NCBI GenBank assembly: GCA_051294375.1
Contig: JBJCIZ010000044.1
Span: 1-59,747 of the forward strand
Direction of reading: 5' to 3'
DNA length: 59,747 bases
From: Paraspadella gotoi
Lineage: Eukaryota > Animalia > Chaetognatha
In this document: in pieces, positions 1 to 42,900 of the stretch
Position numbering within the stretch: the first letter of the stretch is position 1
Layout: every line of letters begins with the position of its first letter
Program-made: the position numbers and the translations under genes
The notes under the pieces: model-generated
The model's database searches: none
Told to the model about the DNA's origin: nothing
The model's input: only the letters and a program-made list of their open reading frames with translations

Positions 1-388
1 GAGAGAGAGAGAGAGAGACATATAGAAATAAAGGACTAATACTGAGATGTAACAGTTTTGTATATTATAATAACAATAATCGACACACAGAAGAAATTCA
101 TTAAAGCTAATACCGAAATGGTGTACATATTAAGTACTCTAAGTCATAAAAGCCGTTTCATAAGGTTTATAACTGCTTTCTACCAAGCGGCTCTTCAAAT
201 TGAATACCGCATTCTCATTGGTGCATGTGGAAGCAGTCAACCGTTCAGGTACGATCTTGTGGTCTACTCTGTATAAAAGGGTGACAATTTTCGCTCTCGA
301 CATAAAAGAAGAAAAAAGAAGAACCGACGAGACCCGCATAAAAAAAACAAAAAAAAAAAAATTGGAGCAAGTGACTCAAATTATTCTA

Positions 389-620
389 ACGGCAACGGGA
401 GGAAGAGAGAAGATGGCGACAACGGCAACGGGAGGAAGACGATGGCGACATCGGGACGAAAGTAATAAGAAAGAGACTCCGATGGTCGGATCGAGAAGAT
501 GGCGACAACGGCAACGGGAGGAAGACGATGGCGACATCGGGACGAAAGTAATAAGAAGAGACTCCGATGGTCGGATCGAGAAGATGGCGACAACGGCAAC
601 GGGAGGAAGACGATGGCGAA
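389..620. repeat. Tandem repeat, ~85-86 bp unit, ~2.7 copies
   Basis: Unit gatggcgacaacggcaacgggaggaagacgatggcgacatcgggacgaaagtaataagaagagactccgatggtcggatcgagaa starts at ~411, 498 and 583; partial copy from 389. Confidence 0.9.
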
Positions 621-1079
621 AATGGCGGGGTCCAAATTTTTTTCCTCTACAATCCAAATAGCGACCATTAGTGTCATTTGCGCTCTGCAGCGTCGCCGTG
701 ATCAACTTAAATATAAAACTACCAAATTTTTGATTTTCTTAAAAGATCGTCAAACTGGGTAATTTCATTTTTTTATTCGTTAGGTTTAGCTAATTAAGAT
801 AGCATTTGAATAGCTGAGTTATTAACCTGGTAGCGTATAGAAGGCAATAATGGAAAGTAACGCCGATTTTGGATTTAAATTTAACATGTTTATTTCGCGT
901 TAGATATTGTAGATGGTATTATGACATTACAGTTCATATTTCTAGTCATACATCGCACTGTCGAGCAATAATCAATGGGTAACTTGTGTACTAATCCCGT
1001 GTCAGTTTTAAAATTTTTCTTTCGCTTTTTCGCTTCGTCGGTTTGGACGCTGATAAAGTGTACTAAAGTCTATGATAAC

Positions 1080-2071
1080 TTATGAAATAGTCGAGAGATA
1101 GTCAAAATATTCCTTTTTGCTGAAATCTCCGTTCTCGATGGCCACGTAATGTGCATCGGCTTTGGTATCCCAACACCAAAACAACTCGACAGCCTCATCG
1201 AATTTGATGTCTACGAGGCTTAGCGCCGTAAGGGATACTTCGGATGAAGTAAGAAGGTCTCCCGCGACGCCGCTATGCAGGTATTTTTTGGCAAAGGATT
1301 TTAAGTGTTCTTCGTTGAAGTAGAACTGTATCGGAGTTGATGAATCGGACAGAGAATTTGGTACGATGAACCAGGGGTTGGTGTAGTTATCCCTGAAGGT
1401 ATATAAATGTAATAATAATACTATTTGTGGTTTTCACTGATGGTCGTATTAGCTTCATTTACAAATATTAATAACGCGCATTGAAAATTTAATACTTTAA
1501 AAAATTATTACTAATAGTAATTAATCACCTGCGATTGCGTTTTCCGTTGTGGATAACATTGTCGTCCCAAGTCCAGTTCTGACGATTGGTGTTACTTCGC
1601 TTATATACCCGAAGGGTCGCCGCATCTCTCTTCTCTGGCTTTCTACCGATTGGAACTTGAAAGACGTCGACCGGCCACCTTGATGCAAGGATTCGGCGAA
1701 ACTCTTCTTCACCGGGAAGACGGACGTCATAGGTGTCATAGCATTCCGGCCACTCATTGAAACATGGGTCTGATTTCACCGAGCAGCGGTATCTAGTGTA
1801 GTAATGTTATTTAAATAAACGACTTAATAGAAACAAAAAGTATATTAAAAAAAAGTAACACCCTCTACTAATTTTCATCGTCTCACCTTTTCCTTTCGAT
1901 CTCGCTACTGAATGCCGACCGCTGCGCCCTGTATATCTTAAATTGCGACCGCTTTGGGCGGATCCATTTTTGGTAGCCGTCGATGGCAATTACTCGTGCA
2001 TCTAGTTGACTCGTCGTCCTCTCGATTTTCGCCCAAGCACAATAGTACAAACCTCTTTTCAATGTTTTCAT
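1080..2071 (-). CDS. Three-exon orphan protein, 253 aa (exons 2071-1887, 1792-1529, 1392-1080)
   Basis: Donors AG|GTGAGA (1886) and AG|GTGATT (1528), acceptors ctag (1793) and ttcag (1393); both introns phase 2 and join three stop-free frames (MKTLKRG...ERKR/YRCSVKSDPCF...RNRR/DNYTNPWF...YLSTIS*); 762 nt total; AATAAA downstream near 890. No recognisable domain. Confidence 0.75.
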
Positions 2072-2262
2072 TGTAGTTTCTTTAGACCTAAGATGACAAT
2101 TTAAAAATTAGTAATTAAAATTAACAAACTATGTTAAGGTCACCGAATCGTGCTTTATGCTTTAATCTTTGTCCACTCAACTTATAAGTAATGCATATAA
2201 TAATATATATTGGTTGTATCAATTTCGTATCGAAAGAGAAAACTTTCCAGGAAAAAAAAATC

Positions 2263-2612
2263 GGATCAGAGACAAGGGAAGATTTTACAAGTCGTCCTCT
2301 TGACCAATAAGAAAACGATGATACCCTAAGACGTTTTTAATTGGTAAATTGATTCGGTTACCAAATAAGGTAGGATCAGAGACAAGGGAAGATTTTACAA
2401 GTCGTCCTCTTGACCAATAAGAAAACGATGATACCCTAAGACGTTTTTAATTGGTAAATTGATTCGGTTACCAAATAAGGTAGGATCGGATGCAAGGGAA
2501 GATTTTACAAGTCGTCCTCTTGACCAATAAGAAAATGATGACACCCTAAGACGTTTTTAATTGGTAAATTGATTCGGTTACCAAACCAAATAAGGTAGGA
2601 TCGGATGCAAGG
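2263..2612. promoter_or_regulatory. 110-bp tandem repeat (3 copies + partial) with opposed CCAAT boxes in a divergent intergenic promoter
   Basis: Units start at 2263, 2373, 2483, partial 2598; each has gaCCAATaag and ttaATTGGta; further ATTGG ~2209 and CCAAT 2631; TATA-like cttataag 2181 and tttataa ~2664/2684 face the flanking genes. Confidence 0.7.
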
Positions 2613-2721
2613 ATATCAGAAAAAAAATAGCCAATTAGAGTCCTCTCATGAAGTCAAGGATCCTTTATAAGTCGAGATTTTTTTTTATAAATCACTTTCT
2701 TGCCTTTCGACACTGCTCATC

Positions 2722-3315
2722 ATGTTTACTTTTTTGAAGATCGCAATTTCATTCTCAATTCTCGGGACTGTTATCTCGAAATTTCCCGACATCGACGATC
2801 TGGACGAGGCATTTTCTGAATATGAAATGTCCGTCTATGATCAATCGATGCATCGACATCCAGAAGTCACAGTTTCAACTGATCGCGAGGCTTACCGACC
2901 GAAGATGATCGAACCGAAGGGTTTGGCGTCTGATGTTGATCAGCCGAGTGATTTGGTTGTCGCGGATCAGAAGGCCGATTCTCGGTCCGACGATCCCGCA
3001 AAGACCGTGAATTCGGATGTGGAACGGGAAATGAAAGCGGCACGAACGAGAATGGAAGTAATTGGCATGACGACGCATCAAGTGCTCGAAATTTTGGCAG
3101 CGGTGTTGGCGCCGACAGGGTTCGTGGCCTTCCTGATCGGGATAGGGGTAAGATGTTACCGCATGCGCCGCCAGGGGTTCTCGTTTTACGAGACCCTCCT
3201 TGTGGCGTTTTACCTCTTCGTCTCCCGCTTCTGTCCTGACCAAGCCACGTTTGGAGATCCTAGAGAGTTGGTTCGTCAACGTCCAGTCGTGGCGATCCCT
3301 CTCTCAGCGCCTTGA
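2722..3315 (+). CDS. Intronless 197-aa predicted membrane protein (signal peptide, acidic ectodomain, TM helix, basic stop-transfer, second hydrophobic segment)
   Basis: N-terminal MFTFLKIAISFSILGTVIS; TM ILAAVLAPTGFVAFLIGIGV followed by RCYRMRRQ; second hydrophobic stretch FSFYETLLVAFYLFV; GC-rich coding composition against AT-rich flanks. Confidence 0.8.
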   Translation: MFTFLKIAISFSILGTVISKFPDIDDLDEAFSEYEMSVYDQSMHRHPEVTVSTDREAYRPKMIEPKGLASDVDQPSDLVVADQKADSRSDDPAKTVNSDVEREMKAARTRMEVIGMTTHQVLEILAAVLAPTGFVAFLIGIGVRCYRMRRQGFSFYETLLVAFYLFVSRFCPDQATFGDPRELVRQRPVVAIPLSAP

Positions 3316-3336
3316 GGTCTCCAAAACTTAACTTAC

Positions 3337-3377
3337 CCCAAAGGCCCTTTTCAGGGCCGCCATTATTTAAAAGAATG
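3337..3377 (+). terminator. Replication-dependent histone mRNA 3' stem-loop with histone downstream element-like sequence
   Basis: CCCAAA-GGCCCT-TTTC-AGGGCC-GCCA (stem-loop 3343-3358) fits the metazoan consensus CCAAAGGYYYTTTTYARRRCCACCA except for the first 3' flank base; purine-rich AAAAGAATG at 3369-3377; 27 nt after the stop of ORF 2722-3315. Confidence 0.85.
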
Positions 3378-3574
3378 TCAGAAATAATAATATAAATGTT
3401 TATTGCTCTCACTGAAATGGCTATTACTTTATTTGAATACGGAAAGAAAAGTAAAATAAGGAAACTAAATTTTGAAAGAATGCCAAAAATAATATTATAA
3501 ACGTTTATTCTTTTTACGAAAATAGTTACTTATTTTATGCGAGTAAAGATAATATAAAACTAAATTTTGTCCAT

Positions 3575-4047
3575 TTATGGAGTTTTAGTACTGTTCTTGA
3601 CCAGTACTTCCAATGCACGAATTTGTTCTTCGAGTAGCTTCGTGTATTTGAAGACATCGACGACTTGGCCCCTGCAGGAAAGGAAACGATTTTATTAGGT
3701 ATTAGGAATATGTAAATATTCATTTCCATCATAACTTGCCTAATTTTTTGCTCGACCCTTCTTGCCCCTCTTCTTGTATTCTCACGATTAGTCAGAATAC
3801 CGACCTCGTACATTATGTTGTACTCTTTTATCCCAGGTTTTTCGGCGTTTCGATCATCTTTGCTAGAGGACAAAGAGAAATATGATTTATATTAGTTAAT
3901 AAGAGAAAATCTCAGTCAATTAATTTTAAATTTTAATCTGGGTAAATGAAAAACATACAGTTCTTTGATAAACTTTCGATAGTCTTGTTTTTGGACCAAT
4001 TCCGCCCTTGCCTGGAGCCATGGCATCTCCATAAAGTTGATATTCAT
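3575..4047 (-). CDS. Three-exon 102-aa basic/coiled-coil orphan (exons 4047-3959, 3862-3740, 3671-3575; second intron GC-AG)
   Basis: Donor CT|GTATGT (3958) to ctctag acceptor (3863) is in frame; AG|GCAAGT (3739) to cctttcctgcag (3672) gives ...VEQKIRGQVVDVFKYTKLLEEQIRALEVLVKNSTKTP*; AATAAA downstream near 3505. Confidence 0.6.
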
Positions 4048-4319
4048 TTTCTTCTTTTTTTTTCAACAGGACTGTTAAAGAGGTAAGGTAAGGTAAGTTA
4101 TTAAAATTTCATATTAACTAAACGGTTTTTGCCCGAGAAGGTTTTTTTTTTCTTTTTTTTTTCTTTCTTCTTTAAAAATATTTTTATTATGGGATTTTTT
4201 TCTTTTGTTTTTTTTGTAGAAAGAAAAATACACATAAATCGAAAAATTTAAAAAAAAAAACAGACGATGATGACAACTCAAAAAAGTAAAGAAAAAAATT
4301 GAGAATAAAGAGAAGGCGC

Positions 4320-4552
4320 CGCCGACCGTTGGGACGGCTTCCCGTTTCAAAACAGGACTCCCTCCCTTAAAAATTTCCAACAATCAGGAGCCAAGGTCTC
4401 GATTTCCCTTTCAAGAGAGGACCCCCTCCCTTAAAAATCTCCACCAATCGCGAGTCAAAGTCCTGATGCCACAACGAGAAATTTTTAACCAATCGGAGAT
4501 GAGGATAAATTTAATTGTCTGTTAAAGCACGTGGGCAGGTGCATATAAATCA
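4320..4552. promoter_or_regulatory. Second divergent promoter region with CCAAT boxes, duplicated block, E-box and TATA
   Basis: Imperfect duplication ccctcccttaaaaat(t/c)tcca(a/c)caatc at ~4359 and ~4424; CCAAT at 4444 and 4489; CACGTG at 4528; tataaat at ~4545; lies between the divergent genes at 4047(-) and 5095(+). Confidence 0.5.
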
Positions 4553-5094
4553 AAATTCACAAACTATTATTAAGTTTTAAATACTTTTGTTTTTTGGGCA
4601 ATTTGTCTCGTATCTTTATTTAGTTTGAGTTTTTCATAATTTGTGTATTAGGTCACAAAAAAAAAAGTGTCCACAATAGATGTAACCTGCAATCTCGTTA
4701 TGGGGGCTTTTAGTTATTTTATTTATTATTTTATTCAATATTATTTTTTTTTCGCCTCGTTTCCTTCTCTGTGACAATATTTAAGTGTTATTTTTCACTT
4801 TTTTTTATGTTTCAATGTTCCTCTCACTATTAATCATTTTTTTCACAATTTAGGTGTTGAAGTGTTTAAAGTTACCAAAAGGGTATCATTAATAAAAAAT
4901 TTTAACCCTTTTCGTGGGGCGCTGATAAATCTTTTTTTCTAGAGTCTGTTCAAGTTTTGAATCCTCATTCTCTCTAGTAAAACCGTTTTATTTTCTTCGT
5001 CTCTTTTATTTAATTTTTTTTTCAGCGCGTTTCTGTTGCGGTTTTATTTTAAATATTAACATTGATTAGAAAATTTTAGTTTTATTTTTATAAG

Positions 5095-7857
5095 ATGGCG
5101 GACGAATTAGGAAATTCCGACTCGGTCCAAGTGATAGAGATCGACGTGATATACAACACCGTCGCCCANNNNNNNNNNGGTCACAAAAAAAAATGTGTAA
5201 ATGTAAATGTGCAAAGACGCATAGGTGAGTTGGAGGAACAATTTGCTCTTTTTGCCGCCTCCACTTTCAACATCACCTTTACAGACGACGATAAAACTTC
5301 GTTACAAAATGCGCGATCGAAAATCGCTAATAAAATTGACGCGCATAACAAATATGTCGAAACCTACCGCGCGTTCGTCGCAGACCAAAATTTTTTAAAA
5401 AAATTGCGCGCGATTCTCGATAAAGACGACGAAACTTCGACGTCTTCGACCCTAGGAGAGGAGCCGCGCGAGTTAGGTTTTAACAATTTTGACTCTAATG
5501 ACATTCCGCACTACATTGACGACGGCAATGCTTGTACCGTTACAGACAACGCTACTTGTAACGGTACCAATAACAATGACATTGTAGACGCGTCCTCCTC
5601 TGACAGCAGAAAGGAGCCAATCACTGTTTTCGACGACGTCGATTACCGAGTAAACAACGACGATCTGGCGGTGTCGTCTTTCGCCGAAATCGAAACTAAT
5701 ACCTTGTATAACGTCGACCAACGTGAAAAAGAACCAAATCCGTTTTTCGACGTGTCACCAATATATCCAACGTCGCCAACATTCTGTGACATACTAATAT
5801 CTGGTGATTTGTACGGCAAAGACGAGGCTAAATTCGTTTCGCCGCCAGTCAAATCTCAAACGGAAAACGATGATGACGCTCCCGCTGATGATTTTGGGGA
5901 TGTTTTATACCCATCAGACATTTTGACGACATTCGTGGACAACCCGGTCCAGGTTATCTCCAAACCTCATAATTTTGTTCACGACATCGAAGCATCGACG
6001 TCGTTGAATACCTTCCGAGGCATCTCGGCCATCAACGATTGTCAAAATGCAGAAATGGGATCAACGCCCCAGATGACGTCATCTCCTATTGAGACAACAA
6101 ATGAGATACCTCCTATTCCTTCCACCCCAACCCCCAACCCTGACGTATCACCAACACGATTGGAAAAGGGAAAGGGGTTGGGTAAGTCATCGTTGCTCCC
6201 TATGACGCCCCCTCGTGGCAAGCCCAAATCCTTCGCGGCCCTAAATACCCCTCAACGGACCCCTAGAAATAAAAGACGTTTTGTGAAAATTCTTCCGGCG
6301 GTTCCCAAGTCGGAAGAAAACCCAACAAAAAAGGCCAAGAAATTGACATCAAAAGTTTTGCAAATTGCCGACCCTCTTCAAAACGAAGAGTCGGCTTTGT
6401 TGTTTTTAAATCAATGCAACGACGATGGCAATTTAGTAAGACAGAGTACGAGTCAAAACTCGAGCCTCGTCGACTTCATGGCAGACAACAATGACGGAGG
6501 TGATATTCTCCAAGATGCACTCGACATGGCTCACCTAACGGGTCAGTGAGTAAGTACTGTTATATTTCTGTTTATTTTTTTTTACTATTATGTCTTTATC
6601 GTAAAGAGAAAAAATGCAATAGTTGTCAAGTTTTTCTATTTATTTGGGTGGGTTGTTCTGTTTTAAACGAGTTTTAATGGGCTCAGGTTTAAAAAAATAT
6701 TACCTTGTTCTTTTTATATATACTTTTTTATAAATAGCTGTAATATATGTTATTAAACAATCAAATGAAAAGAATTTAGTTTATGTCGCCCCTAAAAGTC
6801 AAAAATGAATACAAATTTAAAAAAAGTTTAAACTTTTTCCTTTCTTCGTTCATATGCAAATGAGACCGAAATCGAGGCCAAACAAAAAGCTCTTGTTTAT
6901 TCTATAAGTTGAGACTGACTTTTCCCTTTCACAGAATCGCAACTTCAAGCGGATGACGATATCCCCGCCACCCCCAAAGACGTCTCCGCGGTTGTCCCCC
7001 GACCAACCATATCATTTAGATTAGCATCGACGGGGATGACTAAGAATGTCACCACTAAGTTATACAATACGTTTGCAAACTGGGTATCCATTTTTAACGT
7101 ATTTAATCGGTTAGGCGATTCCGCTCTACTTAAAAGGATATGCCTTTTATGTTTAAAAATTACATCGAGGGGAAAGGCCAATAATTTAAAAACTCATTTG
7201 GCAACAACTTGCAAAGTTGCGAGGTGTTTAATTCCACCATTGCCTAGCGAACAAGACGACCCCGATCTACTTTTAGATTATATTTGGGTGGCTTTTTGCA
7301 ATCTGAATGGTTGCCAGCGCATCGTCATCGTTGACGAGAGTGATATTCAGGACAATGCTCTGAAAAATCACTTCGTGAAAAATCACCCGAAGATAACCTT
7401 TGCCAAGCGCCACAAAAATGACATGACATGGTGCAAAGTCCGTGAAGCCGGCGTAAATCTCTATCTGTGTCCATTCTGTGATAAACAGATTCCAACTGTT
7501 ACAGAATGCAGGGCGGAAATGGTACTTCACTGTATGAAGAATCATAGCGACCAATATGTTGTTTGTGTGGTATGTTCGCGTCCGAAATTATTGGCCAATC
7601 TCCGGGGTCATTGTGTAAGACATCTTTGCAATGATGACTTGGTTGGGATGGGTAACACACGTTTGACTTGTGCATCGTGTGATTTTGTCCTTGACACCAT
7701 CGGAAAAATAGACACGCATATTCCTAAATGCAATCCAGTTCGTGGCCATCACACTAATTTAGGCTTTAAAACTTATTTTAAAGGATATTGCTCCGAAATA
7801 GCCAAGACTCAAATTTTCTGTCGCGGGGCTTCTCTACCACACTATGACTCACCATAG
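5095..7857 (+). CDS. ~789-aa putative transcription regulator: coiled coil, acidic disordered region, NLS, BED-like finger and three C2H2/C2HC-like fingers (exons 5095-6541, 6935-7857)
   Basis: Phase-1 donor G|GTCAGT (6542) and acceptor ctgac-tttccctttcacag (6934) join ORFs 5095-6549 and 7036-7857 in frame; W..F...CLLCLKITSRGKANNLKTHLATTC is BED-like; CPFC..H...NH, CVVC..HCVRH, CASC..HIPKC. A 10-N gap at 5169-5178 makes the N-terminus uncertain. Confidence 0.7.
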
Positions 7858-8624
7858 GTGGCTATTTCGGCTTTAAAAATAAATTAATTGTTTTAAAAAA
7901 TTTTTTCTATTGCCCCTCTAACGTTAAATTTGTCGTCGATCTTTCTTAGCTCATTGCAATTAAAGCCTACAGTGTGTACCAATTGGTGTATTATTTTACA
8001 ACATTAATTTAATGTTTATTACCATGGTGGTAACGTTAAGTTTTCTCGTTAATGTTTTTTTCTTTAATTTTATAGATTAAGGTTATTGTTTGTTATTAAA
8101 CAAATAAAGTAGTCTTCTCTAACAAAGTCATATTGTTTTGTTGAATTATAATTTTTTTTTTTTTTTTTTTGTGTTCGCTCATTAAAGTCTTTATTTTAAT
8201 CATCGCCCTGCTTTCAATAATTTCCAAAACGTTTGTTACATTTTTATTTCTGACTGTTATGTTTGTTTATTTGTTTTGTATGCATTTGTTCCCTTACCGT
8301 TTATTAGTATTAATGATTTAGATATAAAATAATCGAATTTAAATAAAATAGTCTGGTTTTCATAAATATTTTTTTTTAGCAACAAAGACAGGAAGAATTT
8401 TAAGAAAAAAAATGTAGACACCAGATTTAAATAATTGCAAGTGGCATCAATAAATAATATTTCTGTTTTAATGGTCAAATTTATAATATGACATACCAAA
8501 TTATTCGCATTTTTACTACATAAAATTTAATTTAGATTTTTTGATATTTCTTTTAGTTTTGGTTGATTTGGAAATTCTACTAAAACTTTAAAGTATTAAT
8601 TCATCGGGGGGCGCTGCAATAGAA

Positions 8625-11092
8625 ATGTCTGATTCTAAACTCCAATGCGTTTTGAACATTCGCGAGTGTGATACAACATATTTTAAAAAAGTCTATAAAA
8701 CCACTCTCGAATTAAAGGAAATCTATAAGGCACTCTGTACTAATAAATCGGCTTTGGTTGTTCTTCACACAAAAAAAGGCAGAGAAAGCGTTTGTAGTTG
8801 TGTTCACGTACTATTTAACTGCATTCAAATGAAAAAAAAATGCACTGTGTTAGCTGAACTGTTCGCGAAAGCTTGTTTAGTTTTTCCAAAATTTGGCGAA
8901 AATTCTGAGTTTGAAAACTACTTTAAAGAGAACTGTATTGCCTTTCCAGTGGAAATTTTCCTCGTCATGGCTGATTCCTTCTTAAATTGTGAAAATCTCG
9001 ATTATAGGTGGAATAGAAGCTACATGCAACACGAAAAAGTCATCCCCATGTTGCCATCTTTAGATTTGATTCACGCTGGTCTGAGCTCTCAGCAATTCCA
9101 TCGGGTCAACTCTCCTTCAAGCTGGAGCTCGTGTCTCTCTCCCATGACCACCTTTAAAACGATAAATTTCAGAGGTCTTAAGCGTTTAACGACCGATCTC
9201 GATGGTCCCAGCGACTCTTCGGAGCCAGAGAGCAAAAAGGCAAAACCTTCTGATTCTAGCTTGGCGAAGCTGGAAGAAATCGCTAATGGCGACAAATCGG
9301 CGTCCAAAAAAATGAGATCATATAGTGCCCTGAAAAGTCTAATCGAACAAAAGGGAATCAAAGACTTTCAACAACTGAAATCTTCTCTGAGTGAACAAGA
9401 GCTGCAGCTCGTGATGTGCACTTGCGAAAATTTTCGATTTGTTGCAGATGAGATTATATATAATCAGAATTTAAAGTACTACGAAACAAGGTTTGAGCTC
9501 ACTTATTTTGAAAAACTCAGTCAAAAGTATGAAGTAGCCCTTCAAACCGCTCTAAGGACTCAGAGACAAAAAATAACCAAATCGTGTCTATTTTTAAGAA
9601 AGTTCCTACTGGCCCAGGGATTTTCAATAAAAAATCTCCTTCTTTTCCTTAATCGATTTTTTGTTAGTCGTCAACTTAATCGAATTGGAGAAGAAAAACC
9701 AGAGGAAAAATGGCTCTCTTCCAATTCATTCCCAGAAGGTTCCCCGAATGGAAAGCGTAACTGTTTATACATAACAGGTTAGTTAACTTTTTTAGTAAGT
9801 TCCATAAGTTTTGCTAATTTTTTAAAAATTATATTAGCTATTCTTTTGTTTATTGATGAATTCGACTCTTCCCGCTTAGACTCTTCCTCTTCCTCTTCAG
9901 ATACACTCTCACTTTCTTCGTCCCTCTGCTCTTCTCACATTTTTCAAAGAAAAAAAAAATTTGATTTTGTAATAGCCAAAGCCGATGAAATTTAAATGCT
10001 AATGTATACAGCGTTAGAATAATCTATCATGACCATATATTATGGTATTAAAATATTTTTTTTGTCAAAAATGCTTTCTTCTGAGGGAACTCGCGCCTAA
10101 TTAAAAATATTATATTACTATATATAGAGCAAACATTTTTTTTTAAATCTTAAAATTTTTTGATGGATTCTGATAGAGCATAAAAAGTTAAACGAGAAAC
10201 ATAATTACTGCTTTTAAAAATTTTTACGTTTTCCAAGTGACAATATAAAAAAACTGATAAAATCATGGAAAGATGATGATGATGATGATTTTTTATGGTT
10301 TTTATTATTTTTGACACACTTATCATAAAAATATTTAAAAAAGAATTATACTTTGTGTAGACAACTTTTTATGAGCTATCTGAATCTGGTCTTAAAATTT
10401 AAAAATTTTTAAAAAAAATTTTTGGCCTTTCCTATTTATAAGTAAATATTAAAAAATTAATTACTAGGGTATAGAGCCATATTAGAAATTTTTTGTCCAT
10501 TGAAAGTATTCTTAAAAATGTCTAAATATTCGTTTGAGCATGTACTCGCTCTAAATTTTTGACTCACCCCATTGAGTGCGGCTACCCCTATTTGTAAAAA
10601 TCAAATTACTTAAAATTGCAGGAAAAAGTTCTACCGGCAAAAGTTTTTTTCTGGATATCATCTGTTCTCCGCTTAAGACTGCCAGCTTAGCGATGACATC
10701 ATCGTTTGCGTACTCACAACTGGCGGCTCAAGGGTGAGGAACCATTTTATATTTGATTGTCAAGGCTAGCAGAATTTTGTGAAAGTAGTGGTATTATCCT
10801 TTGTATCTACAGAGTGGAGGCGATCCGTCAGGACGAGCTGGCACTCAAAAAGACGCGTCTGGACGTAAGCAGTTTAAAACAACTGTTCGGAGGAGAGGCT
10901 CTTTTGGTTGACAAAAAACACTCCTCTTGTACCGAGGTCAAGCGTCTTCCTTTTGTTGCATCTTCTAACCAAACAGTCGCCGAACTCTGCCCCGACAACG
11001 AAATTGACAGAATCGCTTTGGAGTCGAGAACTTATCAGCTGTCCTTTAAAATTCCCTTAATAAATGAAAAACTTGTACACGACGTTGTCTGA
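8625..11092 (+). CDS. Parvovirus NS1/Rep-like protein with SF3 helicase, ~514 aa, three exons (8625-9777, 10622-10733, 10813-11092)
   Basis: Splicing G|GTTAGT...ttgcag|GA creates KRNCLYITGKSSTGKS (Walker A); GG|GTGAGG...ctacag|A leads into AIRQDE (Walker B), KQLFGGEALLVDKKH (B'), PFVASSN (motif C), ALESR (Arg finger); exon sum 1545 nt = 515 codons. Confidence 0.88.
10096..10469. mobile_element. MITE-like foldback insertion in NS1-like intron 1
   Basis: Imperfect ~100-bp inverted arms, e.g. gattctgatagagcataaaaagtt (~10166-10189) versus reverse complement of aactttttatgagctatctgaatc (~10363-10386). Confidence 0.55.
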
Positions 11093-11256
11093 AGGGCTCT
11101 CAAAATTTTCCTTTACATTTCATTTGGTTATTTTAATATGATACGATCATGGTAAAGTGAATTAGTCCATTTTGGTGAAGTTGTTATTTAAAGTAAAAGT
11201 AAAAGAGGAGCTAACGATCAAAATTCTAAGAGTTTTCAACCGGGAGTCAGATTCGG

Positions 11257-11400
11257 AAGAGAGAGAGAGGGAGAGCGACGGAGATATCGAGAGAGAGAGC
11301 GAGAGCAACGGATATCGAGAGAGAGAGGGAGAGCGACGGATATAGAGAGAGAGAGAGAGAGCGACGGAGATAGAACGGAGAAAAAGGAAGAAAGACGGAA
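11257..11400. repeat. GA-rich compound tandem repeat with gagagcgacggagatatc-like units
   Basis: Four imperfect (GA)n-GCGACGGA(GA)TAT units directly downstream of the NS1-like gene. Confidence 0.8.
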
Positions 11401-11419
11401 ATATCCGATGGAACTAAAT

Positions 11420-11821
11420 CACGTGACTCGGAAGCCAGGGACGCGGCGCGGCGGGCGCTGCGGGCACGGCGCTGGATGGTGGAACCAAAGACAGCTGTTG
11501 GGCGCTCGTCAGGTGCGTCGCCAGGCGCGTCAGGCGCGTCGTTGGGCGCGTCAGCTGCCTGGAAACCGAGGTCGCTTGATCAGGGAGGAACCAAGTAAGC
11601 TATAAAAGGAAAGGAGGAAAGGAAAGAGGGTCTTCCCAACTTTTCAATCCACGGAGACAAGCTGCGCTCTGTGGTGCATTTAATGGAATATTGTTGTAAC
11701 TCTGTACTATTTATCTTCAAATAAATATACACTATCTGACTCATTTACTTCAATTTTTCTGACGCTAAGTTATAGCTCAAGCTGTAAGGTGCTTGTAGCA
11801 GCCAAGGCCTAGCACGCTACA
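11420..11821 (+). repeat. LTR-like or promoter-like segment (probably a 5'-truncated solo LTR)
   Basis: GC-rich GGCGCGTC direct repeats, TATAAAA at 11601, AATAAA ~11720, ends ...gctaCA at 11821; no partner LTR or TSD found. Confidence 0.3.
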
Positions 11822-13156
11822 TCAACGTCTTCTCCAAGATCATTTTTGCTTCCGGGTGCAGCACTAAAAACCACCTCCTAAGCACTCCTCATGCAAATCT
11901 TGCCCCACCAGCGCAAGATCCGGACTTAAGGTGACGTAAAAGTTGTCAGAGACTCCCGGAAAAGACCAGACGCTAGCCAAAAGCAGAAGCCGAAGCTTCA
12001 TCGCTCTGGCGCCGCCGACGCCTCAACACAAGAAGCCCATCCTTCTTTTTCTGTCCCCTTCGATAGGCCGCCGCCGGTGAAACCGGACTGGAGTTCTGCC
12101 GAACAGGAGCAGAGTTTGTCTGCTGACCACGATGCGGAGCGCAACTATATTTACAGATGCCGGAACAACGTTCGGACCACCACTCGCAATCGCAAACTCG
12201 CAGGACGCCAGCGGCCAATATTGGGCGCCAGAATACCCGCGGCGACGACGCAAGCGCAGCAGAGAAAAGCCGGGGCTGAACGCCTCGCCGACCTCGGCAC
12301 CGGAACTTGCACCAAAAGACACCTGTTCACTGGTGGAGGCTTGTATCTTGAAGCTTTGAAAAATTTAAAAGTTTGTGCCGTTTTAAACCTTGGAGAAAAC
12401 TCGACAAGGACGGCCTCCCAAACCTGGAAAAAAGGAGGAAAACAAAGAACGAAGCGACAATACCGCGACGTCCGTATTGAAAACCCGTTATGCAAATGAG
12501 GCAAAAAATAATAAAAAAATATTTTTTCTTTTTTCCAACTTAAAAAATTTCCAAAAATCGCGGAATTTTCGAAAATAACAGCCCGAGATGACGTACGATA
12601 AAAACCGAAAACGCGAATAAAATCGCATAAACGATTACGACTGTACGCCAAAATCCCATTTTGACTTACTATAAAATTTGAAATCCGTACATAAAAAATT
12701 AGACAAATGAGAATAATTCGAAAATTTCATTTTTACCGTCAAAATCTGAACAAAAAATTTTGAGTAGGGGTTGCACTTACAAAAATCAATAATAAATAAA
12801 TAAATTAACCATTTTTAAAAACCCTACTTCCAACCACTTAAAATAATAAAATAAATTCTTAAAATAACACACTAACCAAAACAAAACATTTTCTGAAGAA
12901 ATCATTGTCTTAAACAATAAAAATAAATAATCAAAAAATTCAAATCTGAAAAATAATTTAATCAGAATTTCTGGTTTGGTGCAGTCCCTATAGGGGAAAA
13001 TCTTGGCCGAACGAAATCAAGCAAATCTGGGAAAACGAATTTTCGTTTTTCAGCCGAGGCCTCTGTAAAAGAATTCCGGTTATGCATAGCAATAAAATGA
13101 AAAATATAACACAAAGAGTAAGTTCTTTGAGGTGAGGTATTCGTATTTATTTTAAC

Positions 13157-16100
13157 TTTCCCCCATCTAAAGTCAAACGGATGATTTTAAAAATCTATCG
13201 CGCTGCTCGTACGAGTCGTTGCTAGGCACCCTTTTAATTAACGCCAGGCCTCCACATGCTTGTCAACTTGGTTTCGTCAACAAGAAGGACGAGTAGGCCG
13301 ACCTCTGGATCCGAAGTGGATAAGACGTCATCTGATGTTAAAGGATGATAATTCTCGGTGTCAAGGCCGAGACGATGGAATCGCTCATGATGCTTCGCCT
13401 CGGAGGACAGCATTGTAGCATTTTTCCCCCCGCAGTCGACGAAGGAGACAACTAACAAAGAGGCGAGATAGATTCTCTGGTACATCTCCGTCGATGTCGA
13501 CGACCGAATAAACATGAGAAAAAATTTCCATTTTGAAACCAAAATATTTTTTTACAATTAGCGAAAGAGACATTTCGCTGTCGATTGAGTATCGACGAGA
13601 GACTCGAGGGATGCTTCTTGCCGCAGATCACGCTGAAGGATAAAAAATCTCTAATTTGCGCTAACGAAATCAGCAATGACGATCCAGCATCCACGAGGCA
13701 ACGGAAAAGATGGGCGGAGAAAACGGGAGAGCATCGACGAGGACGGAGCCACCCGCAACAACTCGGCGATGAAACCCGGATGATCTCTGGTTACCATGGA
13801 GACCAGACGCTCGTTATTGGCCACGTCGACCCCGGCATCCAAAGAAAAATTCAGCCCGCATCATGGAACCAATTCCATATCACCATTTTCCCGTGAAAAA
13901 GAGAGAGAGGCCCAGATTCGCAACATCAGGACGTTTCTCTATTCGTCCACCAAGGATGATCCATGAATTTAGACAATTCGATATTTGAAAAACGAGAAAA
14001 ACGCGATTTTTTTTAACTCGAAATTACTTATTTTTGACGATGAGCGAAAATCGCCATGAAAAAATAACGAATTTAAAACATGAACTTATCTCAAAGGTGA
14101 GACAAATTAGGCGACAACGTGGATAAAAAATTTACTCAAAGACTAAACTTTGACGCGACGTAACATAACGACGCCACAGGCATCTCGGAGGCATCTCAGA
14201 AGAAGAACTGCTCCGGCGTCGTCTCTGTAGGCTCGGTCGCGATCCAAAGAAAACATCTCGATGGAAGTAAATCACATTGATCCAGTCACCTCGGCCCGTT
14301 TAAACGTATCGTCGACCAAATTCGCTTCACAGCGAAGCCACCCTGCATGTTGAAGACATGCTTCGCTGATGGCGCCGGAAAAAATCGGCGTCGAAAAGCT
14401 GCATCGATACGAAGTCAGGTTGACAGATGAATTTCCGCGGCGCTCGACGACCACTTGGCCGATTGGATCGTCGACGGTCCCGTCATCTTTGTAGAAAGGG
14501 AATCTTACTACCGCGGCCAAATTCGATTCTCGGCATCCACGAGATGAAATAAAAGAGAGAAATCTTTTCTTGCGCCGGTGATGCCTCTTCACCAAACGAG
14601 AGAACGTCAACGGCGAAGGACATCCTCCATATCCAGATGGAACGCATCGTCAACCGAAGAAATCTTCAATTTTTCACCTTTGGCCTAGGAAGTGTAGACT
14701 CAGAGCCGAGAATAAAAATATTTAACGAGACTAAGCTGCATTTTCAATCACTTTGTAAAACAGATATTTTAAAAACGCAATATCTCCCATAACCCAAATA
14801 ATACAAAGCTGAACACTGTCGTAGCTCAGACGACGATCGCGATTGGCGCCGCAGGGTAGAAACGCGCCTCTGCTCGACGGCTAAACAGCAAAGTCACGTA
14901 GCCTTTCACACGGCGCCGGTCCTGACTTGTCCGGCGCGGCGTCAGACTAGATTTTCCTGCTGCTCTTCGATGTCGAATTGCGTGAAGATACTTTTGAAAA
15001 TCCCGCGACCTCAACGGGGCTCAATCCGTCTAATGGAGAAGCGGATGATGATTTTTTCCACAAAAGCAGCGCTCCTTTATCGGGCAGATATCGACACAAT
15101 GACCGCTTCCCAAGCAGTTGAAGCAGCGGGCTTGAGAGATGCAAAGTTTTCGACGATCTGCGGGCCACAGTCGTTGAAACTTTTCGCAGCTATGCAAATA
15201 GTGGCGTCCCTTGCAAAGTGCGTGGACGCCGACTCTGAAGACGGCGTTCCCGTTGATGCAGGAACGGCTGCGGCGGCCACCGAAGCCTTCTTTTTCTTCG
15301 ATGATTTGTCCACCGTCGCGGCGTTGACCCTCGCCGCCATCTTTGCTTTGCTCGTCGCCGCTGGATCTTTCCCATTTTTCGCCGGCGGTCTGAAATCGAG
15401 AACTTCTTGGTTTATGGCTAGAAAAGACAAGAAATCAACAAAGGAGAGATCGTCGTTCCAATCATGATTCTGTCTAAAAATAACCACTTTTTTCGCCCAC
15501 TTATCTGAAAGGTGTGGCATCCGTTTGGAGAGCAGATCCGCCATGACGGCCGCACAGTCGAGGTCTGCAAGTCGGTCCGACTCCTTCGCGAGGTCGTACA
15601 CCTGCTGCAAAGTGATCAGAAGACCATGATGACCTGCTGAGTCCTTTCAATCGAGCTTCAGACCGCCGAGGATCTGTTCAATCATCTCGTCGGCCGTCGT
15701 CCGCTTCATTCCCCACTTTCTCTTGAGAACGCCGAGGGCGTCGCTAAGAGCCGCGGTAGCGTCGTATCGAGATAGAAATTGATCGATGGAACGCTTGGGA
15801 AGACCGTCGAACCAGTGAGGAAGCTCCTTCAACTTCATTGGATCCGTAGCGCCCTCCAACGCGCAGACGCTGACATTGAAATCGCGAAGTTGACGCTCAA
15901 AGTCTAGACGTGACGAAGTCTTGTCGACCTTGATCTTTGGGCGTTGCTGCTGAAGCATTTGGTAGGCAAGCGTTTGAGCTTGAATTTCCAAGAAGCCCAT
16001 AGCCATCGCAGCGGAGCGGACGAAGGCTGCCTCGAACGGCGCCACATCAGAGGATGACGCCGTTTGATGCCTTGAGGGGACAGAGACATCTCTTTCAATA

Positions 16101-39999: not shown

Positions 40000-42900
40000 G
40001 TGAATCAAGAAAAGTCAAACTTGCTGAGTTAAAATAGACAGAAAATCCGACCAATAAGAAGCGGGTATCAGTGATTCTCTGAAATTGAATTGAAACAGAG
40101 AGTGCAGAAGTAGCTAAGATGAAAAACGCTGGTGTGATTAGAAGGATAATAAGGTTGAAGGACTAGAGAGGCATATAATACATATTATGATTTACTATTA
40201 ACGTTCCCGATTTATTTGTTGCTGAATAGGGAAAATGATTACAAATTTTATTATCGTTACAACAGATAAACAACAACTAACACTTCTCCGGGATTAGCTA
40301 ATATGTACACACTGTAATAGTGTGGTTATGATCTTACTGTTTGGTGTTGAGGTGGGAAGGGGGAAAAAAAGGAGGAAAGAGAGGATGGCGAAGAATAAAG
40401 AAAGAAAAAAGAGCGATGGCGCTTTTGTCTTTTCCTTTGGCGTTCACTTTGAGAGGCGGATTTTTTTCTTTTTTTTTTTTTGCGATGGAGAGAAAAAGTT
40501 TTTTTTGTGAAATATTAGTTAAAAGTTAGTTTTTTTTGCGCGAGGAAAATAATAAAAAAATTAGGATGAAAAAAAATTAAGATTAGGAAAGATGGAAGAA
40601 AAAAAAATTAGGGAGAGTTGGGAGAGTTTGCCGGTTAGCCAGTTAGTCGGTAGAGCAGGGAAACTTAATCCTGGGGAAGGTTAAACCTTGGGGAGAGACC
40701 TGATTGGGCGTCACTGGGAAGATGGGTATCTAGCTAAAGGTAGGTACTATCTAGTCTCTCATCAGGGAAAAGAGGTAGGAAGGGTAAGGAATATATTGGT
40801 AATGGGTAAATAGCTACAACAAAGGGAACAAGGGTACATAAATAGGAGTGAAGGGAGAGGGAAAGTTTTCAGACCCCGAGACCGAGAGGAGAAGTTGAGA
40901 GAGTCTGTCCGATCTCCAAGACTCTATCCATGACTCCAGGGATGAAGAGGAGGGGACGACGAGGGGAGGAGGAGGCGTTGAGAGGGGGAAGAGAAGGCCC
41001 GGGGGAGAGAGAGGTTCTGGCGGTAAGGTGAGCCTCTATCTTGGATCTCCATTGACAGGATCAAGCCAGCAACAACAGAACCGGATGTCCAACCAACACC
41101 TCCAGCAGCCCCAAGAAGAGGACGACCACCAGCAGCAACAGGCAAGTCATTTCCTAGGGGGGAAGGTCAGACAAATAATAGAACAAGAGTTGGCTCAGAG
41201 GCCGACTCCACTCATTCCCAACATTTTAACCCTCAGTGGCCCAACATAAGACGTCAACAAGAACCTCCACAGCACCACAACACCACCACGACAACAATCC
41301 ACTCAACAACCAACACGACTCCAACCTCAGAGACAAGCACGTGCAGACATACCATCGTCTGGTTCTGGAAGGACTAGATATATATTGTATTAGATGTTTA
41401 AGATCTATCAGTCATTCGCGATGATCCGTGATGTAGATATCGGTTATCAGACAAGTATCACCAAATCAAGTCTACCAGTTGGTCCACTAGTTACAGATAA
41501 TCACAACTGGACCAACAAGCAAAGTAATCATACACAGCTGGTTAATTATTCACCATATATAACCAAAGTTGCCTAACACAAGCAATCCATCATAACAACT
41601 TTGACCAAACAAATCATTTTTCCTATCTTCCCTACTTCCTTTTTGGTAAAATTATTTTCCCAAACATCTTTTTTTTTTTTTTTTTGAAGAGATATATGTA
41701 AATATTTATTGTAGAAGACAGAGCCCTTTTTAGTGAGGAGATCCCCCAATTAGTTTCTTAACACTTATTGTTTGCCCAAAATAATAGCCCCCAAGGGAAA
41801 ACAAATATGTAAAGTACTTGTGTCCTTAACTAGTAGTACAAGTCACCTACAACTGTTAAATAGGGTCAGTTCGAACCCATAAAGGCACAGGAAACATATG
41901 AGGGGTGGAGAGAGACGACTATACCACCGAGTCTCAGTCACTCGTAAAACCCTTACACTCCACTCTTTCTCCGAGCCGGATCTAATGTCCAGCAAGGACT
42001 TTGCCTAGCTTTGGAAAAGTGACCTTTTGATTGACCGGACACAGTAATATGGGCCCAAGGCGAGCACGTAAGTCAAGTTAGTCGCGGCGATGAATAGTAA
42101 AGATGATCAGGAGAGAGCTCGCTTCACTTCTTTCTACTTCTCTTACATCGTCACAATTCTTCACCTTCTTCTCACTTTATTATTACTATTTTCGTCTTCT
42201 CCAGTACTATCCTTATAAATCGAAAAATTTCAAAATAGGCTTTCTTAATTTTGATTGCAGATTTGAATTCCTCGTCAAAAGTTGATAAAAGAACATATAA
42301 GTCATTTTTGAAAATTCTTTCATTAAGTGGGTTAAAAATTTAAAAAAACTATATTAATATATAAAAAGTAAATTTTCAGCTTAAAAATATAGCTTTTTTT
42401 AATTTTGACCCACTTAATGAAGGAATTTTTCTAAAAGAGTTATATTTCTTTTTATCAACTTTTTATGACGAATCCAACATCTGTAATAAAAATCTTAGAA
42501 AAAAACTAGTTTGAAATTTTAACATTATTGGATTAGTACTAGTATAAAATATGGCCTACTGCGTAAATTGTAAAAATTTATTATAAATTTTTATCTACAT
42601 AAATGTTTATTAGTATAATGTTGTTCGTTCCTCACTTTTAGAATTTTAATCAAAGTTAAATTTTAGGAATTTACTACGCCTTACTTGATACCCTCTGTAT
42701 AGCTACTTCCTATTACCATTACTATTACTATCCATTACTATTACTATTACCTTACTTACCTCTTTTCCTGATGAGAGACTAGTTAGAACCTACCTTAGCT
42801 AGATACCCATCTTCCCAGTGACGCCCAATCAGGCCTCTCCCCAAGGGTTAACCTTCCCCAGGATTACGTTTCCTGCTCGACCGACTAAGCAACTAACCGG

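Follow-up and report, generated by a model that had tools for sequence, protein, structure and literature searches.

A histone-type stem-loop behind an orphan, predicted membrane-protein gene in a cluster with a parvovirus NS1-like gene

Introduction

To our knowledge, the histone hairpin is reserved for histone mRNAs in animals. The locus analysed here raises the question of whether it can also finish the mRNA of an unrelated protein. In a 59,747-nt stretch of DNA (hereafter, the window), a hairpin of this type lies behind an orphan reading frame (hereafter, gene B) that is predicted to encode a membrane protein, in a cluster that also holds a gene resembling parvovirus NS1. A first-pass annotation of the same DNA had proposed that histone mRNA processing was co-opted at this site. 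From the sequence and its comparison with other loci, we put the probability that gene B gives rise to a non-histone mRNA finished by SLBP and U7 at roughly 0.55.

Results

Gene B is predicted to encode a single-pass membrane protein

2722 to 3315, plus strand: gene B, an orphan open reading frame (ORF) without evident intron, 197 aa, starting with ATG

The reading frame of gene B remained stop-free in none of 20,000 base-shuffled versions. Residues 1-19 of the protein are hydrophobic (mean hydropathy 1.78) and predicted to be a signal peptide, and residues ~121-143, with hydropathy up to 2.28 and followed by basic residues, are predicted to form a transmembrane helix. The predicted ectodomain between them is acidic and of low structure. 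This hydropathy profile fits a single-pass membrane protein. A resemblance to single-pass membrane proteins in an Atlas search reached only 0.86, below 0.9, and is taken as a lead. No homologue was found among 399 candidates, and none in the viral contigs; the AlphaFold model of the protein (pLDDT 52) was too poor for a fold search.

Gene B had been described as the only intronless gene of its cluster. Introns are indeed predicted in the other four genes, but the description needs a qualification, as a donor-like splice site at 3148 lies within the gene B ORF and its use could remove part of the frame. We think that this donor is unused, because the candidate intron that would start there is atypically GC-rich (56% GC, versus 23-34% in the seven predicted introns of the neighbouring genes). 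The hairpin thus sits on the sole gene without evident intron, which matches the expectation from histone-type processing; three of the other four genes have AATAAA within 190 nt of the stop.

The stem-loop behind gene B resembles histone 3′ ends in sequence and position

3343 to 3358, plus strand: histone-type stem-loop core, 16 nt, with a 6-bp stem and a 4-nt loop

The core has G-C at pair 2 and U at loop positions 1 and 3. The stem begins 27 nt past the stop codon of gene B, the distance given in the first-pass annotation; the string quoted there begins 21 nt past the stop. The distance falls inside the range of 23-31 nt that passages of a survey give as typical of model species, the median over 2,281 metazoan species being 30 nt (bioRxiv 2026.10.14.759114).

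A scan with the Rfam Histone3 model (RF00032), which had been suggested as a check, matched 3338-3382 at 28.7 bits (E 1e-4, 14 kb searched). The match is under the gathering score of 34 bits, so that an Rfam scan at default or gathering settings missed the hairpin. According to passages of a recent preprint, five human H4 genes likewise fall under this cut-off (bioRxiv 2026.06.11.731563). Conserved flanks of this type are A-rich on the 5′ side and ACC-type on the 3′ side. The 5′ flank agrees with the Rfam consensus, and the sole departure is the base directly after the stem, which is G where the consensus has A. A run of 19 nt that includes the entire core is identical to the wild-type SLBP competitor RNA given in passages of PMC1635294, where this RNA displaces human SLBP.

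The hairpin is isolated in the window. A relaxed stem-loop pattern found 1 site in 59.7 kb when both strands were searched, and no further Histone3 match was obtained, either in 1-14000 (E≤10) or in 14001-59747 (E≤1). The segment 3316-3400 does not fold more stably than shuffled sequences (z -0.16), and the centroid structure keeps the 6-bp stem alone.

A second-order model predicts 0.0017 occurrences of the paired core in a window, or 7.5e-6 when its flanks are included. Positions 15-60 nt behind an ORF of at least 100 aa make up 1.1%, so that core and position together are expected ~2e-5 times per window (the product of the two figures). Across ~250,000 windows, the combination of core and position would arise ~5 times by chance, or ~0.02 times when flanks are included under a flank definition that was chosen after this site was seen. 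A chance origin of the hairpin is unlikely.

A downstream purine-rich stretch coincides with a predicted poly(A) site of a convergent gene

3369 to 3377, plus strand: purine-rich candidate histone downstream element, 10 nt past the stem
3366 to 3569: tandem duplication of ~105 nt with 73-75% identity, between the stops of genes B and C
3575 to 4047, minus strand: gene C, an orphan convergent with gene B, with three predicted exons and an open frame of ~102 aa

The purine-rich element reported by the first-pass annotation is present, and its spacing of 10 nt from the hairpin falls inside the 8-13 nt reported between stem and downstream element in passages of bioRxiv 2026.06.11.731563. The report had left out a 6-nt A/T spacer, however, and an explanation from the opposite strand also exists. 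Read on the minus strand, 3369-3377 supplies the CA and the U-rich run of a distal poly(A) site that is predicted for gene C; a minus-strand AATAAA at 3399-3404, followed 21 nt on by this CA and U-rich run, makes a textbook poly(A) site for gene C. The candidate downstream element may therefore serve gene C, gene B or both. Both copies of the ~105-nt repeat contain the purine-rich word, each together with an AATAAA on the minus strand (3399 and 3504), and gene C has AATAAA 65, 141 and 170 nt past its stop. The second intron of gene C (3672-3739, minus strand) is of the GC-AG type, and the frame is open across it. An Rfam search of the window gave no match to U7 snRNA.

The absence of a poly(A) signal behind gene B had been cited in favour of histone-type processing. 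No plus-strand AATAAA or ATTAAA occurs for 784 nt past the stop, but this is weak evidence. Absence over 150 nt is common by chance, AATAAA being lacking from 593 of 938 AT-rich stretches of that length; it is lacking from 110 of 824 stretches of 785 nt. Weak variants of the poly(A) hexamer are found at +73, +75 and +134 from the gene B stop.

The putative promoter region is CCAAT-rich partly through a triplication

1080 to 2071, minus strand: gene A, an orphan with three predicted exons and an open frame of ~253 aa; AATAAA 185 nt past the stop
2253 to 2721, plus strand: putative divergent promoter region of genes A and B

The region between genes A and B contains a 110-nt triplication with CCAAT boxes (2253-2582), GATCC at 2659 and TATA-like boxes at 2666 and 2686. 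It was noted earlier as CCAAT-rich, and 8 boxes in 656 nt are consistent with this; the count is inflated, however, as 6 of them stem from the triplication. When the triplication is collapsed, 4 CCAAT boxes are left in ~436 nt (0.9 expected, p=0.014), and CCAAT richness is weak evidence for a histone-type gene. The GATCC upstream of the TATA box at 2666 is what we take to be a histone-promoter motif, and a full-text literature search did not find it in that role. The second putative divergent promoter of the cluster (4339-4466) has a CCAAT-bearing tandem duplication too, of 2 x 64 nt.

No histone sequence was detected

The statement that no histone ORF is present was borne out, with 0 Pfam histone matches in 25 local frames (Pfam covered 40 frames of the window in all). 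Eight histone motifs gave no match with ≤2 mismatches in the six frames of the whole window, in a scan that is blind to a heavily decayed pseudogene. An adjacent histone pseudogene, which the first-pass annotation had named as a possible source of the stem-loop, was looked for and none was found; a remnant of this kind beside the hairpin was rejected, there being no match to histones in the local frames run against Pfam or in the motif scan.

Gene B belongs to a compact cluster with an NS1-like gene

5095 to 7857, plus strand: gene D, with an acidic first exon (10-N gap) and a Cys/His-rich, zinc-finger-like second exon
8625 to 11092, plus strand: gene E, a parvovirus NS1-like SF3 helicase gene with three predicted exons and an open frame of ~514 aa

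Five tightly packed genes, gene B among them, extend from ~1080 to 11092 (~10 kb). The frames of genes A, C and E are open over their predicted splice sites, which are canonical apart from the GC-AG intron of gene C. The frame of gene D crosses its intron with just 1 of the 4 donor positions examined; its zinc-finger likeness is weak (0.88-0.90), and AATAAA follows 20 nt past its stop.

The last exon of gene E matched Pfam Parvo_NS1 at 26.3 bits (cut-off 20, E 4.4e-6), with weak matches to AAV Rep (E 0.4), and the first AATAAA lies 627 nt past the stop. No relatives of this exon were found among longer proteins or in the viral contigs; exon 1 had none among 1.84 billion representatives and none in the metagenome contigs. 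The gene represents a very divergent lineage, in a cluster of orphans where no capsid gene is evident. Its intron 1 carries an insert (10130-10424), a MITE-like imperfect palindrome of 295 nt (68%) with a partial match at 42388-42468. About 90 nt past the NS1 stop, a stretch at ~11180-11820 looks by eye like an inserted LTR, having GA repeats as well as a TATA box and AATAAA, and no second copy of it was found in the window.

Two genes and 5.3 kb separate gene B from the NS1-like gene. That both belong to one capsid-less, parvovirus-derived element of ~10 kb is plausible and the weakest link in our reading, as the membership of gene B is drawn from packing alone. No exon scanned gave a Pfam capsid match, and orphan gene A may be a divergent capsid gene. 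Neither terminal repeats nor terminal hairpins were found at the cluster edges, and no second copy of the cluster turned up when the window was compared with itself. These three absences favour another explanation, that gene B is a host gene, or a gene of other mobile DNA, which merely adjoins NS1; viral co-option would then be mistaken even with a functional histone-type end, as this explanation is independent of how the hairpin functions. We consider it somewhat unlikely. Within ~10 kb, the five orphan genes lie close together and share promoter and 3′ regions, and their surroundings contain repeats and retroelement remains: the repeats to the left of the cluster are found again in other parts of the window, and the remaining window includes reverse-transcriptase remains. 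None of the 11 other ORFs scanned in the window turned out to be a conserved host gene, which also argues against a host origin.

Similar stem-loops follow non-histone ORFs in unrelated contigs

A metagenome scan that covered the form of the hairpin with G at the first 3′ flank base gave 4 matches, none of them adjoining a histone gene, and this G-flank variant was seen in no true histone gene. In 3 of the 4 matches, which represent two independent loci, the hairpin is located 37-50 nt past non-histone ORFs.

The first locus is found in contigs L015 and L017, which are near-identical copies. All 4 stem-loops of L015 are 37-50 nt past non-histone ORFs and score 27.9-35.4 bits, two of them over the cut-off; three were found by the Rfam scan and not by the search pattern. 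On the minus strand of L015, three paralogous small ORFs and a 252-aa ORF are each followed by a stem-loop and then by a common downstream motif. This locus may represent an element or virus, so far undescribed, in which every gene ends in a histone-type stem-loop. The family of the long ORF has 11 metagenome members, has no Pfam match and is unrelated to gene B; it was not found in the viral contigs, and its AlphaFold model (pLDDT 49) was too poor for a fold search.

The second locus, L016, has a stem-loop 39 nt past an F-box ORF (Pfam), two variant hairpins 68 and 92 nt past a second F-box ORF and one further hairpin without any ORF of at least 60 aa within 361 nt. The F-box ORFs are in tandem (736-1830), and two of the hairpins have A-U for the outer G-C pair. 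In contig L018 (85-165, minus strand), the histone stem-loop occurs in tandem copies with no ORF nearby.

These four contigs and the window have nothing in common beyond the hairpin. When 8 hairpins were aligned, all 48 stem cells paired and 2 of the 6 pairs changed on both sides; the covariation score was reached by 29 of 500 shuffles, in a hairpin set that had been selected by pattern and model.

The hairpin core also occurs in phage-like contigs

The stem-loop patterns gave 1, 13, 8 and 1 matches in 2.9 million viral contigs, the first recurring among the 13. From their ORF context, we take these matches to lie inside or antisense to ORFs or to be intergenic hairpins of phage-like contigs, some of them perhaps due to chance; none resembled a case from an animal virus. 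Six of the 13 phage-like matches sit ≤20 nt past a stop, so a hairpin behind a stop codon is not unique to histone processing. Seven phage-like matches were rescanned, of which four scored 22-25 bits and three were not listed at E≤1. The exact core of the gene B hairpin recurs in contigs L003, L005, L006, L007, L009, L011, L012 and L014, mostly in intergenic positions. Judged from their ORF context, such copies are probably intrinsic terminators, and they are a source of false Histone3 matches at 22-25 bits. Two phage-like contigs carry other structured RNAs, with Twister-P1-like and hammerhead type II matches in L014 (3020-3071 and 5430-5493) and a tmRNA in L004 (564-919).

Discussion

How the hairpin may be used

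The proposal that histone mRNA processing was co-opted here fares unevenly. The hairpin agrees with a working histone-type 3′ end in its sequence, its position and its isolation, and the same design is seen in unrelated contigs, whereas the arguments from the purine-rich element, the CCAAT boxes and the missing AATAAA are weaker than was claimed.

An inert relic is unlikely, though it is the strongest of the accounts in which the hairpin is not a working 3′ end. The hairpin, perhaps together with the TATA region, would then derive from a host histone gene, for example through insertion near a histone cluster, and gene B would be silent or polyadenylated. In favour of such a history, passages of PMC6880638 place tapeworm densovirus loci close to histone clusters in some cases, and passages of PMC3169594 propose that the nematode transposon Tm1-HH acquired its hairpin by capture from histone sequence. 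At the locus itself, the first 3′ flank base is off consensus, and the insert in the NS1 intron suggests some age. Drift, however, would be expected to erode both the stem and its spacing, and all six pairs are intact at an on-target distance from a non-histone stop. The frames of the neighbouring genes are still open, a histone coding remnant is absent, and 59.7 kb hold no second hairpin.

We give still less credence to the hairpin being an internal SLBP site and not a 3′ end, whether it affects the translation or stability of a polyadenylated mRNA, acts there as a decoy for SLBP, or separates the B and C transcripts. The predicted poly(A) site of gene C can fully explain the candidate downstream element, weak poly(A) hexamers are available 73-134 nt past the stop, and the ORF-less tandem hairpins of L018 and the extra variant hairpins of L016 would suit such a role. 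Yet the purine-rich stretch keeps the 10-nt spacing expected from the reported 8-13 nt, a strong poly(A) signal is absent for 784 nt, and a longer gene B mRNA would run antisense over the 3′ end of gene C.

Chance resemblance in the 3′ region of an orphan gene is very improbable, for although ~5 cases of core and position are expected per 250,000 windows and the core arises independently in phage-like contigs, the expectation falls to ~0.02 over all windows once flanks count, the seven phage-like matches rescanned reach 22-25 bits or are unlisted at E≤1 compared with 28.7 bits for gene B, and the hairpin falls behind the cluster's single gene without evident intron.

If gene B does end by SLBP/U7 processing, its transcription would start from the TATA/CCAAT promoter, with the TATA box at 2666, and the transcript would not be spliced. 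SLBP would bind the hairpin, U7 would pair with the purine-rich 3369-3377, and the host SLBP/U7 machinery would cut 4-5 nt past the hairpin (~3362-3363). The likely outcome would be a non-polyadenylated gene B mRNA, made and destroyed with S phase in replicating cells. The stretch 3369-3377 could be used by both strands, as the downstream element of gene B and as the U-rich poly(A) element of gene C, with cleavage of the gene C transcript predicted at 3376-3377. Because the stretch would be shared in this way, the convergent B and C RNAs would end ~13 nt apart without overlap. Parvovirus replication usually takes place in mitotically active cells, according to passages of PMC6880638, and this need would supply a motive for an S-phase mRNA, provided that the element includes gene B.

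Contigs L015 and L016 suggest that histone-type ends may be a wider habit in mobile DNA or orphan gene families. Tentatively, then, the locus can be read as a capsid-less, spliced, parvovirus-derived element of ~10 kb that would use SLBP/U7 for the S-phase mRNA of a membrane protein, with a 9-nt stretch serving both strands, as one case of a wider and undescribed habit of animal mobile DNA or orphan gene families. We regard this full version as possible and not as probable.

Comparison with known systems

Gene B likely works like a replication-dependent histone 3′ end, as far as its sequence tells, while being neither a histone gene nor a canonical endogenous parvovirus. Like the 3′ ends of metazoan replication-dependent histone genes, it has the 16-nt core, the 5′ flank, the distance from the stop and a purine-rich word at 10 nt, and like these genes it has no evident intron and a TATA/CCAAT promoter, here a putative one. 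Unlike them, it is solitary, is predicted to encode a membrane protein and has G at the first 3′ flank position. Its downstream word doubles as a poly(A) element of the opposite strand, which also sets this putative processing site apart from histone 3′ ends.

The nearest published precedent, a partial one, is Tm1-HH/Cg-1 of Meloidogyne, a Mutator/Foldback transposon whose transcript carries the histone hairpin and shows no evident coding potential; passages of the same paper state that the motif had otherwise been found in histone genes only (PMC3169594). In both cases, the hairpin lies in a non-histone unit, which for Tm1-HH is a transcribed mobile element. Tm1-HH, however, is non-coding and has terminal inverted repeats, whereas gene B has an intact ORF of 197 aa, histone-like spacing and an NS1 gene nearby.

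With the Parvoviridae and the tapeworm endogenous densovirus EmuDNV, as described in passages of PMC6880638, the cluster shares an NS1-type SF3 helicase gene integrated in an animal-type genome. EmuDNV combines NS1 with inverted terminal repeats and an ORF for a putative capsid, and some of its copies lie near histone clusters (PMC6880638). The cluster differs in its four orphan genes, its lack of termini and of a capsid match, the absence of a histone gene from the window and its length of ~10 kb, compared with ~5 kb for a parvovirus genome. The passages on the tapeworm densovirus make no mention of a captured hairpin (PMC6880638).

Among the metagenome contigs, L015/L017 and L016 are like gene B in having non-histone ORFs followed by a histone-type stem-loop. 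They are unlike it in the distance of the hairpins from the stops (37-50 nt) and show no kinship in protein or DNA beyond the hairpin. Passages on the histone ends of C. elegans name no non-histone client (PMC1924863), and a full-text literature search, with most subscription papers outside it, returned no report of a viral or a protein-coding non-histone gene with a histone-type end.

Implications

If the reading of gene B as an SLBP/U7 client is true, SLBP and U7 would have a wider role, which would extend to a protein-coding client other than a histone gene; this would count above all if that client is carried on virus-derived DNA. A replicon that depends on the S phase of its host would have a simple means of timing a cargo gene, and a class of genes would escape poly(A)-selected RNA-seq.
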